The notes under the pieces: model-generated | What the model was told of the DNA's origin: nothing | Seen by the model: the letters and a program-made list of their open reading frames with translations, nothing else | Databases searched by the model: none | Shown here: piece after piece, positions 8,626-40,370 of the stretch | Numbering within the stretch: position 1 is the first letter of the stretch | Layout of the letters: the number at the start of each line of letters is the position of its first letter | Program-made: the position numbers and the translations under genes | Source: Planctomycetaceae bacterium | Lineage (GTDB): Bacteria; Planctomycetota; Planctomycetia; Pirellulales; UBA1268 | Reading direction: 5' to 3' | Length of the DNA stretch: 43,527 nt | Assembly: GCA_027486095.1 (NCBI GenBank) | Contig: JAIXPT010000440.1 | Span: forward strand, 1-43,527

Positions 8626-8716
8626 GCTATACAAGGTTTACAAACCGTTTGCGTACGGCACGACTTATTGCGTTTCCATGAATACTCCTTGCATACATTA
8701 GCAAACGTTCTATATT
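8626..8716 (+). promoter_or_regulatory. Promoter region of the DUF1559 operon with GntR-type boxes
   Basis: AT-rich. GCTATACAAG (8626-8635) and TTGCATACAT (8689-8698); candidate -35 TTGCAT (8689) and -10 TATATT (8711), 16-bp spacer. Confidence 0.5.
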
Positions 8717-8776
8717 TATTCGCAGAGGGCGAGCGCGGTGGTAGTGGCACTTGGAACTGGCGCGGGGAGCGGAGCC

Positions 8777-9943
8777 ATGAGCAGGCTGGAGCGGCCGGGA
8801 GATGGGGAAAAGCGGTGGTGCGGCTTGGGCCGGCGATCTCTTCCGGGTTTCACCCTCGTGGAACTGCTTGTCGTGATCGCCATCATCGGCGTGCTCGTGG
8901 GCCTCTTGCTGCCCGCGGTGCAGGCGGCGCGGGAATCGTCCCGGCGGAGTTCGTGCTCGAACAATCTGCGCCAGATGAGCCTCGGCGTGCTCAATTTCGA
9001 ATCGGCCAAGGGCCGGTTTCCAGCGGGGCTGCGGGATCCTTTCTTTCTCACGGTCGGCAGTACGCCGACCTACCTCACGAATCGCGCCCGGTTCAGCTTC
9101 ATCACACTGATTCTACCCTTCATGGAAGAGGTGGCGCTCGGCGATCAAATCACGTCGTATCTCAAGGCAAGCGGGAACGCGGCCCCATGGAACACGGGGC
9201 CCTTGGGTGGGATCGGTTCGCCATTCGTCGTTCAGCCCAAAGCCCTGCTCTGCCCCTCGGAGCGGACGGTCTTCACCAATGCGGCGGAAGCGAGGCCGAC
9301 GAGCTACCGTTGCAACCGCGGCGACATCTTCACGGCCTCGGATCTAAAGTATCAAAGGCGGGGGCCGTTTGGTACCGGCTTCGACCGAGACACCTACTCG
9401 TTGACGCCGATCAAGGTCGCTGCCATCCCCGATGGCTTGTCGAAGACGGTGATGCTCGGCGAAGTGATCCTGGGAGATCTGTCTTCGTCACGCAGCGCGG
9501 GCACCGGTCTGCAGGCGTCGCTCGCCTCGACGGATGCTCCCGGCACCTGCGCGAGCCTGCTTGCGACCGATCAATACAATCCCGTCTTCGGCGTCGGTTT
9601 CAACGATCGGACGGCGGGCCGAAAGTGGGGCGATTCACTGGTCTTCTACACGGGGTTCAACACCGCGACGGGTCCAAACACACCACGGTGTGGCGCCAGC
9701 GAGAACCTTCACATCGTGCCGGTGAGCAGCTACCACGCCGCGGGAGCGCAGGTTTCGATGTGTGATGGAAGTGTGCGATTCATCTCGGATTCAATCGACG
9801 CGGGTGATCCGACCGTGGCTCAGCCCAGCGTGACGACGGATGCCGGCACGGGCGTCCAGTTTTACACGGGCCCGAGTCTCCGCGGCGTGTGGGGCGCGAT
9901 GGGGACGATCGCGGGCAGCGAGCCAATCGCCACCGGAGAATGA
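8777..9943 (+). CDS. DUF1559 prepilin-type N-terminal cleavage/methylation protein with H-X9-DG motif
   Basis: [65 protein letters not shown]. Confidence 0.95.
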   Translation: MSRLERPGDGEKRWCGLGRRSLPGFTLVELLVVIAIIGVLVGLLLPAVQAARESSRRSSCSNNLRQMSLGVLNFESAKGRFPAGLRDPFFLTVGSTPTYLTNRARFSFITLILPFMEEVALGDQITSYLKASGNAAPWNTGPLGGIGSPFVVQPKALLCPSERTVFTNAAEARPTSYRCNRGDIFTASDLKYQRRGPFGTGFDRDTYSLTPIKVAAIPDGLSKTVMLGEVILGDLSSSRSAGTGLQASLASTDAPGTCASLLATDQYNPVFGVGFNDRTAGRKWGDSLVFYTGFNTATGPNTPRCGASENLHIVPVSSYHAAGAQVSMCDGSVRFISDSIDAGDPTVAQPSVTTDAGTGVQFYTGPSLRGVWGAMGTIAGSEPIATGE

Positions 9944-10008
9944 TCGGCCCAGCGGCGTGTGGCTCCGGCCGCCGCGGTCAAGTGTTCATCACCATGGAGG
10001 ATTCAACC

Positions 10009-10512
10009 GTGTCCGGAAACCTGCCGCAGGATGGCGGTCGTTGGGTTCGATTCGTCGTCGCGGCGACGATCTTGGTCGGTGTGGTCGGGTGCGGCACCTC
10101 GGGCCCAGACACCCAGGCCGTTCAAGGGACCGTCACCATCGACGGCGCACCGCTCGAAGGCGCCACGGTCTATTTTTCACCGACGGGTTCGGGAGGCGCG
10201 CCGGCAGCGGGACAGACCGGATCCGGTGGAGTCTTCCGCCTGACGACGGTGGTCGCCGGAGCGCGGGGTGGCGGTGGGGCGGTGGCGGGCGACTATGCTG
10301 TGGTGATCCAAAAACGCGAGATGCCGGCCGTGGCCGAACTCTCCACGGATGATCCGCGCTACGGCGGCGACCGGCCCTCCACGGAGTCATCGAAGGCGAT
10401 CAAGGAGCTCGTGCCGGTGGTCTACGGCGATGCCAAGACATCGCCCCTCCAGGCGACCGTAAAAAAAGGCGTGAATGCGTTCACGTTCGAGATCGAATCG
10501 AAGGGGAAATGA
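10009..10512 (+). CDS. Lipoprotein with carboxypeptidase-regulatory-like fold (usual DUF1559 partner)
   Basis: GTG start after GGAGG; lipobox VVGC; VQGTVTIDGAPLEGATVYF...GAVAGDYAV...VPVVY...SPL...GVNAFTFEI. Confidence 0.85.
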   Translation: MSGNLPQDGGRWVRFVVAATILVGVVGCGTSGPDTQAVQGTVTIDGAPLEGATVYFSPTGSGGAPAAGQTGSGGVFRLTTVVAGARGGGGAVAGDYAVVIQKREMPAVAELSTDDPRYGGDRPSTESSKAIKELVPVVYGDAKTSPLQATVKKGVNAFTFEIESKGK

Positions 10513-39086: not shown

Positions 39087-39461
39087 TCAGTCGATCGGCC
39101 GACTTCCGCCCGATGTCGAGCCACGGGTCAACAGAGGAACGGCGGCGAAACCGGCCAAGACTGCACAGGCGCCCGCAGCCACAGCGACGCCGCCGCCCCG
39201 CGTCGCCCCCCACACATTCTGCGTCGCCGCCATCGCCACGACGATCGGGATATACATGCCCGCCCAGTAGCCGACTCCCATCTCGAATGCCGGGGTGGCG
39301 AGCCCACGACGCCGAACGCCGGCCATGCCGAGCATCAGTGCCACCATCGCGACACCGACGCCCCCGATGTCACTGTCGATGCCGAGCCACTGCGCGAGAA
39401 AAAATCCGAGGCAGCGGCCCAGCAGCACGCACGCAGCCAGAAGCACCGTACCCCACACCAT
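39087..39461 (-). CDS. madL: Malonate transporter subunit MadL
   Basis: MVWGTVLLAAC, LGIDSDIGGVGVAM, YWAGMYIPIVVAMAATQNV; directly upstream of madM. Confidence 0.92.
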   Translation of the reverse strand: MVWGTVLLAACVLLGRCLGFFLAQWLGIDSDIGGVGVAMVALMLGMAGVRRRGLATPAFEMGVGYWAGMYIPIVVAMAATQNVWGATRGGGVAVAAGACAVLAGFAAVPLLTRGSTSGGSRPID

Positions 39462-39545
39462 CGGATTCAGTCCTCAACGGTCTGACAAACCGCTCGCGAT
39501 CTACCCGACCGCCTGGGAAGTGAAAATCTTTCGTAAGGCGACCGA

Positions 39546-40262
39546 TCAGCGACGTGCCCGCTTCGACGCCCGCCGCTTCGCCGGCGTGTTCGCTTCGTGC
39601 ATGAGCGCGAGCGATGCCACGAGATCGCCATACCGCTCCCCCTGCACGATCACGTGGCTTCGCAGCCGCTGCGCCGCGAGTTCGCCATCACCCTCGGCCA
39701 GGGCATCGACGATCGCCTGATGCTCTGAATAGGAGTTTTTCAAGCGGTTGCGCAGCCGCAACTGCAGCCGGCGGTAGGGCCGCAGCCGGCGCTGGAGCGA
39801 CGAGGCCTGCTCGACCAGGAATGCATTGTGGCTGGCCGCGTAGATCAGGCGGTGGAAGTCTTCGTTATGTGCGAAGTAGTCGTCGATGCTTGCGGAGTCG
39901 CGGGCCTCCTCGCACCGCTCGTGGACGGCGGCGAGGGCGGCGTGCTCCTCGTCGGTCATGCGGCGGGCCGCCAGGCGGCCGCACATCGCCTCCAGTTCCG
40001 CCATCACCTCGAACATCTCGCACAGGCGATGCGGGCTCATCTCGGCCACGATCGCGCCCCGGCGCGGCCTGAGATCGATCATCCCCGAGGAACTGAGCTG
40101 GATGAGGGTCTCGCGGATCGGCGTGCGCGACACGCCAAACTCCTTCGCGAGCGCCACCTCGTCGAGCCGCGTGCCCGGGGCATAGGTGCCATCGACGATC
40201 CGCTCTTCGAGGGTTTCGCGGACGGCATGGGAACGCTTGGGGGCGACACGGGGGGCGGGCAC
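39546..40262 (-). CDS. GntR family regulator with FCD domain (MatR-like by context)
   Basis: GTG start at 40262 with AGGAGA RBS; wHTH PGTRLDEVALAKEFGVSRTPIRE; FCD NEDFHRLI...EHQAIV..L. Confidence 0.93.
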   Translation of the reverse strand: MPAPRVAPKRSHAVRETLEERIVDGTYAPGTRLDEVALAKEFGVSRTPIRETLIQLSSSGMIDLRPRRGAIVAEMSPHRLCEMFEVMAELEAMCGRLAARRMTDEEHAALAAVHERCEEARDSASIDDYFAHNEDFHRLIYAASHNAFLVEQASSLQRRLRPYRRLQLRLRNRLKNSYSEHQAIVDALAEGDGELAAQRLRSHVIVQGERYGDLVASLALMHEANTPAKRRASKRARR

Positions 40263-40360
40263 GGTGTGAATCTCCTGAGGCGGCACAGACCGGCCGTCAG
40301 GATATAGCGACACTGGCGAGATGGCAGGGGCGATCACACACAAGCTCCCGTGAGCCTAAA

Positions 40361-40370
40361 GTGTATACGA
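40361..40370. promoter_or_regulatory. GntR-type box upstream of the GntR-madLM unit (autoregulation candidate)
   Basis: GTGTATACGA; 9/10 identical to the reverse complement of the 21334 box. Confidence 0.55.

Follow-up and report, generated by a model that had tools for sequence, protein, structure and literature searches.

A candidate accessory regulon in a Planctomycetaceae bacterium that may link degradation of an acylated glycan to recovery of its sugar and its acid

The present study analyzes contig JAIXPT010000440.1 of a Planctomycetaceae bacterium (assembly GCA_027486095.1), a stretch of 43,527 bases, here called the window, which is the entire contig (C247) of a genome, G000, of 3.77 Mb in 456 contigs that is 77% complete. 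Its DUF1559/N-methyl genes and its kinship to other genomes put it in Planctomycetota. Between positions 8626 and 40370 it brings together secreted glycosidases and esterases, galactose genes, the malonate transporter genes madL and madM, a MatB-type acyl-CoA ligase, and a GntR/FCD regulator. The reading we favor, with confidence evenly balanced for and against, is that one accessory regulon, controlled by the GntR/FCD protein, here ties degradation of an acylated glycan outside the cell to recovery of the sugar and the acid that it yields. Patterns detected are in the identities of the genes, the active-site residues of a galactofuranosidase-type enzyme, the conservation of an operator-like motif, synteny among relatives, and gene fusions. 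The G+C content of the window is 63–73%. Open reading frames (ORFs) were picked by codon-position G+C and scanned against Pfam, NCBIfam, and PDB sequences; all genes listed by a first-pass annotation made from the DNA letters were found at about the positions it had given them. In addition the span holds a ROK regulator, a pair of DUF1559 genes of pseudopilin-like type, and two secreted proteins of small size. Signal-peptide-like segments were read by eye, and such N-termini were seen in the GH2 enzyme, the 764-amino-acid (aa) protein, the GH158-like and GH99-like enzymes, the esterase, GalM, and both PATR-repeat proteins. The features of the span are as follows.

8738–9943, plus strand: DUF1559/N-terminal methylation motif protein (pseudopilin-like), copy a; PF07596 139 bits, PF07963
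9889–10512, plus strand: small lipoprotein-like protein, a hydrophobic N-terminal segment followed by Cys; no Pfam match above cut-off
10509–12803, plus strand: secreted 764-aa protein with a predicted fold of beta-sandwich and (alpha/alpha)6 barrel; may be a glycoside hydrolase, a lyase, or phosphorylase-like, in no named family
12824–14689, minus strand: secreted GH2 enzyme of predicted beta-D-galactofuranosidase type (GH2_18-like); Pfam and PDB matches
14714–15694, minus strand: galE, UDP-glucose 4-epimerase type; PF01370 190 bits
15691–16737, minus strand: galT, galactose-1-phosphate uridylyltransferase; PF01087 206 bits, PF02744 204 bits
16777–17901, minus strand: galM, aldose 1-epimerase with signal-like N-terminus; PF01263 295 bits, start read from sequence
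17922–19520, minus strand: sodium:solute symporter (SSS); PF00474 181 bits, TIGR00813 291 bits
19555–20706, minus strand: galK, galactokinase; PF10509, PF00288, PF08544, start inferred from sequence
20738–21295, minus strand: small secreted protein, an ORF with signal-like N-terminus, first in the string small-galK-SSS-galM-galT-galE-GH2
21336–21341, no strand: GTATAC operator-like site upstream of the small/gal/GH2 string
21438–22772, minus strand: ROK-family regulator with winged-helix domain; PF00480 163 bits, MarR_2/HTH_24
22812–24155, minus strand: secreted GH158-like enzyme; PDB 9oro 274 bits, 6pal 223 bits
24139–24633, minus strand: small secreted protein, partner of the GH158-like gene; adjacent orthologues in relative G015 and locus L036, no family
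24765–26018, minus strand: secreted GH99-related (beta/alpha)8 enzyme, 417 aa, assigned from partial PF16317, PF03659, and PF14307 matches and predicted fold
26044–26070, no strand: TATACAA half-sites in inverted arrangement, GTATAC among them, in the divergent promoter between the GH99-like gene and the ligase
26230–27729, plus strand: MatB-type acyl-CoA ligase; PF00501 223 bits, PF13193 72 bits, true start 26230
27742–28851, minus strand: DUF1559/N-methyl protein, copy b; Pfam match
28824–32900, minus strand: giant secreted PATR-repeat protein 1; PF12951 in 5 stretches, internal repeats
32988–37370, minus strand: giant secreted PATR-repeat protein 2 with SGNH/GDSL esterase domain at residues 558–792; PF12951, PF13472, PF00657
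37382–37387, no strand: GTATAC site in the divergent PATR2/esterase promoter
37412–38260, plus strand: secreted alpha/beta-hydrolase of carbohydrate-esterase type (BD-FAE/Abhydrolase_3); Pfam match
38289–39077, minus strand: madM, malonate/Na+ symporter subunit; PF03818 332 bits, profile positions 3–248 of 249
39087–39461, minus strand: madL, malonate transporter subunit; PF03817 113 bits, profile positions 3–115 of 118
39546–40343, minus strand: GntR/FCD regulator, first gene of gntR-madL-madM; PF00392 62 bits, PF07729 109 bits
40363–40368, no strand: GTATAC site upstream of gntR, 20 bases from where its ORF starts; motif search

The first-pass annotation had seen one palindrome shared by the promoters of the locus, and this is real in that GTATAC stands in four promoters, although what is shared is only a short core. 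All four sites are intergenic (21336, 26065, 37382, and 40363), and TATACAA half-sites lie at 8628, upstream of DUF1559 copy a, and at 26044. Four occurrences in 43.5 kb compare with 0.55 expected, and none of 100 shuffles reached four; the genome as a whole has 93 sites in 3.77 Mb, or about 1.1 expected per window, and only this total was used because the genome-wide coding/non-coding classifier misplaced two of the window's intergenic sites. The excess alone is modest; conservation makes it stronger. Among 40 relatives, orthologues of the GntR regulator occurred in only three (G011, 93% identity; G015, 91%; G006, 77%). GTATAC stands upstream of orthologous gntR in all four genomes (G000, G015, G011, and G006), upstream of the ligase in three of three, including G015 (L012:239) and G006 (L015:3191), and upstream of the small-GH2 operon in both genomes with that region on the contig (G000, and G006 at L160:4840). 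The gene for PATR2 with its SGNH domain also has the site in two of two genomes (G000 and G006), and in G006 the PATR2 orthologue, at 78.5% identity, diverges from small-GH2 across a GTATAC site. In G011 and G006 the motif was found, too, upstream of DUF1559 genes in the gntR neighborhood, and there was no GTATAC at the small-GH2 promoter of G021 and G035, two relatives with small-GH2 and no GntR orthologue. The regulator has an N-terminal GntR winged helix and a C-terminal FCD domain (FadR/FCD subfamily). FadR/FCD-type GntR proteins bind palindromes with a GT..AC core, and a palindromic site with this core at its own and other promoters matches that pattern, making GTATAC a putative operator; the B. 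subtilis GntR operator presumably has the same GT..AC core as the window site. MatR-type regulators sense malonate or malonyl-CoA, and we predict that the GntR protein of the window binds the GTATAC sites and senses malonate.

Within the genus gntR is flanked by conserved anchors, sensor-kinase-like (HATPase) and aspartyl-protease genes, with variable cargo (G006, G011, and G015). In G000 the unit is gntR-madL-madM, and the other units hold the esterase, the PATR proteins, the ligase, the GH99-like and GH158-like enzymes, and the gal/GH2 string. The corresponding unit of G015 runs gntR, malonyl-CoA decarboxylase (PF05292, 303 bits), a secreted GH-like protein, and a BD-FAE esterase, with the decarboxylase as first gene after gntR, contiguous and co-directional with all three and approximately 10 kb from the ligase on the same contig; other G015 units comprise GH158-like, partner, GH99-like, and DUF1559 genes, a divergent ligase-esterase pair, and 764-aa, GH2, small, and PATR genes. 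G011 has gntR, another secreted GH-like protein, a BD-FAE esterase, and a family III CoA-transferase, together with DUF1559 and MatC, and G006 has gntR, a GH-like protein, and BD-FAE, likewise with DUF1559 and MatC. On other contigs of G006 are the ligase and small-GH2-764-aa genes, each with GTATAC, and the order PATR1-DUF1559-ligase is repeated on its contig C91. Among relatives the ligase has orthologues only in G006 and G015, and these same two are the only ones of the 15 genus relatives with GH2 orthologues. Thus, in all four GntR-bearing genomes secreted esterases and GH-like genes are joined to malonate uptake or activation genes, and the latter are swapped between genomes, with MadLM or MatC, ligase or CoA-transferase, and a decarboxylase in one. 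Because malonate genes are replaced by non-homologous equivalents in the same neighborhood, the swap is hard to explain unless malonate handling belongs to the function of the unit.

There were two families of secreted proteins in relatives that directly follow malonyl-CoA decarboxylase, ligase, or gntR, one at L011:13948-15042, L042:5859-7004, L165, L166, and L167 and the other at L013:8934-10382 with its G006 orthologue. Both look by eye like clan GH-A TIM barrels and are without a Pfam match or a significant PDB sequence match. For the first (alignment A2, the GH-like protein of G015, L042, L165, L166, and L167) a clan-GH-A-like motif was read by eye, and a PDB profile search gave a single match at E 0.39. 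A Pfam scan of both small secreted proteins, of the 207-aa protein, and of the pair of GH-like proteins from relatives returned no match above cut-off.

The ligase had been called MatB-like by the first-pass annotation and this assignment holds, given that the closest solved enzymes are MatB (3nyq, 290 bits; 4fuq, 278 bits), approximately 80 bits above oxalate-CoA ligase (207 bits) and with FadD-type enzymes at no more than 192 bits, and that genes of this ligase family have MadLM as a partner in 35 of 80 loci. The protein is accordingly named here as a predicted malonyl-CoA synthetase. It scores below the curated NCBIfam cut-off for malonyl-CoA synthase (353 versus 558 bits), and its genomic context is a stronger argument for a malonate role than its sequence score. 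Both madM and madL are full-length matches to PF03818 and PF03817. MadLM and MatB have been used as an engineered pair in E. coli (PMC12303837).

The 80 loci were drawn from many phyla around ligase relatives of 49–66% identity. The 35 with madM fall in several phyla, and in 34 of them no more than 4.5 kb separate madM from the ligase, with madL-madM-ligase as the typical order; these 34 form the compact set, from which L049, with madM 4.8 kb from the ligase, was excluded. Esterase orthologues 56–62% identical to that of the window stand directly beside the ligase or madLM in L024, L030, L036, L042, and L052, with a 35% esterase relative in L041, and a GH99-like gene adjoins in two of the 80 (L036 and L042). 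In L042, labeled Verrucomicrobiaceae, a single 673-aa ORF (L042:1227-3248) contains both the GH99-like and the esterase domain and lies directly upstream of madL, madM, and ligase; after these comes the same GH-like protein as behind the decarboxylase of G015. L036 reads GH99-like, DUF1559, GH66, GH99-like, madL, madM, ligase, esterase, and GH158-like with its partner, and in L052, labeled Opitutales, the order is glucuronate isomerase, sulfatase, esterase, madL, madM, and ligase. Among 105 nearest-neighbor ORFs of the 34 compact loci (of 106 selected from 181 found, after ORFs of L044 and L042 were dropped), the Pfam families were very mixed, and those seen most often were BD-FAE/Abhydrolase_3, with four, and GH99, aldehyde dehydrogenase, and sulfatase, with three each. 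The esterase and the GH99-like enzyme recur beside madLM-ligase in two phyla, which is the part of the linkage proposed by the first-pass annotation (madLM, ligase, GH2, and esterases together) that survived the survey; the GH2 part did not, with none beside the ligase in the 80 loci, and most loci are unlinked.

The pairing of glycanase and esterase is itself a widespread fusion, since GH99 and/or WbsX Pfam domains were present in 90 of 120 long esterase homologues among those listed, a count made by eye from Pfam assignments. The GH99-related/BD-FAE fusion is approximately 600–690 aa, and many of its carriers are labeled Verrucomicrobiales; there are also proteins in which the esterase is joined to a beta-lactamase, GH35/42, GH43, sulfatase, or metallophosphatase domain. 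When metagenome contigs were scanned with the fusion alignment, 13 fusion loci were found, four with ligase and/or madLM in the flanks, along with a further stand-alone GH99-like locus with divergent madLM-ligase. The alpha/beta-hydrolase at 37412–38260 is a predicted malonyl esterase. The second esterase domain, on PATR2, belongs to a pair of giant proteins (28824–37370) that are paralogues with internal 300-base repeat units 66–85% alike; short-read contigs show many spurious joints within the PATR genes.

On the side of the sugar, the minus-strand string from 21295 to 12824 consists of the small secreted protein, galK, SSS, galM, galT, galE, and GH2, and orthologues of the small secreted protein precede GH2 in G006, G015, G021, and G035. 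The GH2 enzyme has sugar-binding, Ig-like, and TIM-barrel domains (PF02837, PF00703, and PF02836), and its best solved relatives are 7sf2, an uncharacterized Bacteroides protein (478 bits), 9j6n and 9j6m, which are ORF1110 (390 and 388 bits), and 7xyr, a GH2_19 protein (225 bits). According to PMC11627007, ORF1110 uses E530 and E464 for catalysis, O2/O3 are bound by N463, H401, and K212, and O5/O6 are bound by Y551, E594, K212, and Y228, contacts that separate galactofuranose (Galf) from arabinofuranose. All eight of these residues (K212, Y228, H401, N463, E464, E530, Y551, and E594) are identical in the window GH2 in a phmmer alignment to 9j6n. That alignment also contains the LDQGxWPDG and RKHIKVE motifs, which the first-pass annotation had associated with GH2 enzymes that include beta-D-galactofuranosidases. 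According to PMC12243196, 9J6M (GH2_18) and 7XYR (GH2_19) belong to the sole furanose-active group of GH2, and this group III includes arabinofuranosidases too. By sequence, the enzyme falls in the furanosidase group and is predicted to be of beta-D-galactofuranosidase type. Compared with ORF1110 of Streptomyces sp. JHA19, it shares the eight ligand-binding and catalytic residues but is without the C-terminal CBM42-like domain (621 aa versus 786; PMC11627007), is nearer to Bacteroides 7sf2, and is encoded at the end of a Leloir operon. A galactofuranosidase ending a Leloir operon that includes an exported mutarotase would make a coherent pathway, in which the operon suggests that the SSS symporter imports the sugar, probably galactose.

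The "GH-A" enzyme of the first-pass annotation, most likely the gene at 22812–24155 (minus strand), stands as a glycosidase but matches GH158, with 9oro at 274 bits over query residues 49–443 and 6pal at 223 bits. GH158 is described as a family of beta-1,3-glucanases (PMC7157763, PMC13195107). Orthologues of its small partner adjoin the GH158-like gene in G015 and L036. The 417-aa enzyme has a PF16317 match of 51.6 bits that covers only profile positions 6–118 of 341 and PDB sequence matches of at most 37 bits over approximately 100 residues. Its model (pLDDT 88.4) finds GH99 endo-alpha-mannosidases as best folds (Foldseek E ~1e-16, TM 0.53–0.72, 17–20% identity), followed more weakly by GH71 alpha-1,3-glucanases. 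The family alignment (A3, from which L203 and L215 were excluded for stops within their match ranges) contains an invariant N-D-x-G-E-G-T block (N337, D338, E341, G342, and T343), which we take to resemble the GH99 catalytic motif with Asp replacing the first Glu. Because the Pfam GH99 match spans only the first third of the profile, we treat the enzyme, on sequence and model, as a distinct GH99-related family rather than a GH99 member. It has in common with GH99 endo-alpha-1,2-mannosidases and mannanases the fold, which is its best structural match, and differs in its low identity to them and in that its relatives are often fused to an esterase. The 764-aa protein had no Pfam, NCBIfam, or PDB sequence match. 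It has 821 representative relatives, and its orthologues come after GH2 in G006 and G015. The model (pLDDT 91.3) places it outside clan GH-A as a predicted beta-sandwich plus (alpha/alpha)6 barrel, and the fold search matched GH94, GH63, GH15, polysaccharide lyase (PL), and GH76-type barrels, most of these matches having a whole-chain TM no higher than 0.45. Assignment to GH127 or GH76 was considered and dropped, since the fold search favored no single family.

Taken as one system, the parts suggest the following sequence of events. The secreted GH99-related endo-enzyme, GH158-type glucanase, beta-sandwich/(alpha/alpha)6 enzyme, and galactofuranosidase-type GH2 would depolymerize the glycan and free oligosaccharides, galactose, and probably glucose, while the BD-FAE-type esterase and the SGNH domain on the giant PATR surface protein would strip acyl groups, possibly malonyl half-esters. 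Galactose would enter through the SSS symporter and pass to the Leloir enzymes, with the furanose form equilibrating to pyranose, aided by exported GalM. The released acid, most likely malonate, would enter through MadLM and be converted by the MatB-type ligase to malonyl-CoA, which could feed fatty-acid synthesis or be decarboxylated where a decarboxylase exists. GntR on the GTATAC-core sites would tie the operons together and probably senses malonate or malonyl-CoA, derepressing all units. That the ester is malonyl, what the glycan is, and what becomes of malonyl-CoA are the steps that we infer. The enzyme set would fit fungal wall or exopolysaccharide material, in agreement with malonogalactan, which is a guess.

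Several observations weigh against this coupling of glycan breakdown with malonate salvage. No malonylated glycan is known from a freshwater habitat. The GTATAC core is only 6 bases long, and the four genomes are kin, so that neither the conserved sites nor the conserved gene neighborhoods are independent observations. The ROK regulator could control the gal/GH2 string independently. Malonyl-CoA decarboxylase (PF05292) is present in G015 and G034 and was not found in G000, at its 77% completeness. Only in this genus do the GH2 and gal genes show linkage to malonate genes. The linkage of malonate with glycan genes is a minority pattern, with an esterase in five of the 35 madM-bearing ligase loci. 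The genes around the esterase-madLM-ligase unit of L030 are not glycan genes. There were no malonate genes in the fetched flanks of nine of the 13 fusion loci, of which four had full 8-kb flanks on both sides. Finally, the exact position of the GH99-like gene beside the ligase depends on the path taken by the assembler, because the gene has a repeat on each side at which independent contigs stop, at 24708–24734 and 26097–26125; G015 separately has a GH99-like gene within approximately 1.4 kb of its ligase. DNA near-identical to 36000–41000 occurs in freshwater or aquatic metagenome runs of several studies, all 30 bins of 23000–42000 are covered by contigs from four such runs, and one X2 contig spans 37038–42000.

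The leading alternative is that two unrelated functions, scavenging of free malonate and an ordinary acetyl-type glycan cluster, happen to be adjacent in one accessory island, with the shared GTATAC core reflecting a broad regulator or chance; we regard this as possible, if rather unlikely. It would account for the 29 of 34 compact madLM-ligase loci that are without esterase and whose neighboring families are otherwise very mixed. Esterase orthologues were found in 26 of 400 other sampled Planctomycetota genomes, and in none of the 20 that were fetched were madLM, ligase, or GH99-like genes within 10 kb; rather, the neighbors (10 ORFs) were unrelated, including aldo-keto reductase, xylose-isomerase-like, AAA, radical SAM, LpxK, and DAO genes, the exception being L136, where a GntR/FCD gene adjoins two esterase copies. 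MadM was not found in those 400 genomes or in the 40 relatives, and MadLM would on that basis be a recent arrival in the lineage. PMC8165983 describes BD-FAE, from a xylan polysaccharide utilization locus (PUL), as a feruloyl and acetyl xylan esterase. In a family-level relative, G021, which has neither a GntR orthologue nor any malonate genes, a BD-FAE-like esterase already stands near galK, small, and GH2 (L161, on G021:C101), and because the combination occurs there without malonate genes, the link of esterase, galactofuranosidase-type GH2, and galactokinase may predate the link to malonate. Chance adjacency does not readily explain, however, that malonate genes of three kinds (MadLM, MatC, decarboxylase, CoA-transferase, or ligase) occur in the GntR neighborhood with esterases and GH-like genes in four of four genomes, that the G015 decarboxylase is contiguous and co-directional with gntR, GH-like gene, and esterase, that a GH99-like~esterase fusion lies directly upstream of madLM-ligase on Verrucomicrobiota-labeled contigs, or that GTATAC is kept at orthologous promoters of both gene sets.

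An improbable alternative is that the acyl-glycan salvage concerns another dicarboxylate, such as methylmalonate, succinate, malate, or oxalate. Succinyl and methylmalonyl esters do occur on bacterial glucans. The ligase scores 353 bits against PRK07514, the NCBIfam malonyl-CoA synthase, below the cut-off of 558, the NCBIfam model that it matches best is that of a generic acyl-CoA synthetase, and oxalate-CoA ligases are its next-best solved relatives; in addition, G011 relies on a CoA-transferase of family III, and MatC bears the name of a dicarboxylate carrier. This is countered by the full-length, high-scoring Pfam matches of MadL and MadM, by the margin of MatB over the oxalate ligases, and by the malonyl-CoA decarboxylase immediately after gntR in G015. 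It is least probable of all that the esterase-madLM-ligase unit is there for small molecules with malonyl groups, for instance malonyl-glycosides of plant or algal metabolites, while the glycanases act on other material, an idea that suits L030, where the unit sits amid small-molecule catabolic genes (thiolase, SDR, alcohol dehydrogenase, and aldehyde dehydrogenase), and the frequent occurrence of the esterase orthologue as a stand-alone gene, but not the many fusions of the esterase to a GH99-related endo-type domain, the lack of a GH1/GH3 beta-glucosidase among the annotated genes of the window, or the PATR surface proteins and endo-type families (GH158 and GH99-like) that point to polymers.

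The coupled degradation and salvage proposed here has partial counterparts in known systems. With Rhizobium matR-matABC (An & Kim 1998) the window has in common a GntR-type regulator, a MatB-type ligase, and a malonate carrier, and G015 also has the decarboxylase while G011 and G006 have MatC; it differs in that the carrier of the window is MadLM rather than MatC, in that MatA decarboxylase was not found in G000, and in that the motif stands, too, in front of operons for secreted glycosidases, for esterases, and for galactose catabolism. The MadLM of Malonomonas rubra (Schaffitzel et al. 1998) is likewise two adjacent genes with full-length PF03817/PF03818, whereas here, as in the 35 loci, the pair stands beside a MatB-type ligase. 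In that organism the madLM genes reportedly belong to a malonate decarboxylase cluster. PULs in which carbohydrate esterases accompany the glycosidases, the BD-FAE xylan PUL (PMC8165983) being an example, similarly cluster secreted enzymes with sugar import and catabolism, but the window has in addition an importer and a CoA ligase dedicated to the acid that would be set free, and its DUF1559 pseudopilin-like genes and giant PATR proteins are of planctomycete architecture. A Bacteroidota-type PUL was considered, and there was no SusC/D-like gene among the annotated genes, with no search directed at SusC/D made. A search of the available literature found nothing linking malonate transport to polysaccharide utilization or carbohydrate esterases and nothing on malonogalactan or malonylated polysaccharides, matches to "luteic acid" being another compound. 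The parts are thus of known kinds, and salvage of the acyl group under one regulator, together with the fusion beside madLM and a matB-type ligase, appears to be undescribed.

Other features of the window were noted. A 77-base element is present in two copies, 74% alike, at 24692–24768 and 26088–26164, flanking the GH99-like gene; its 26-base core occurs 10 times and its 16-base core 89 times in the 3.77-Mb genome, intergenic at the places inspected, and contigs from independent runs break at it, where depth is higher. It looks like a genome-wide intergenic repeat and is without Rfam match, an Rfam scan of the whole window having returned one tRNA and nothing else. Outside the span are a metallophosphoesterase with Tat-like N-terminus (792–1652, minus strand), a third BD-FAE-type esterase with signal-like N-terminus (1649–2809, minus strand) beside a histidine kinase and a P-type ATPase, an aspartyl-protease gene (40700–42166), a PIN-domain gene (42355–42744), the tRNA (43046–43117, minus strand), and an anti-sigma-type HATPase gene (43163–43525).

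A broader view, which we offer tentatively, is that the PVC bacteria (Planctomycetota and Verrucomicrobiota) possess a module, so far unrecognized, for harvesting malonyl decorations of polysaccharides, consisting of the GH99-related endo-glycanase/malonyl-esterase fusion, MadLM, and the MatB-type ligase, that this module is joined in the window under a malonate-sensing GntR to a galactofuranan/beta-glucan set, and that glycans of fungal or algal type bearing malonyl groups do serve as a source of carbon in freshwater. Malonyl-CoA would then be obtained ready-made, bypassing acetyl-CoA carboxylase. Carbohydrate esterases are usually seen as helpers of glycosidases and the acid that they release is ignored, but here the importer and ligase for that acid would be wired to the glycan genes. 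If the coupling is true, there would be a new malonyl esterase specificity and a new GH99-related enzyme family, and a natural supply of malonyl-CoA independent of the carboxylase step. The compact natural MadLM-MatB pair with its candidate malonate-responsive repressor and operator would be useful for engineering, and malonylated glycans would be an overlooked class of substrate in freshwater carbon turnover.

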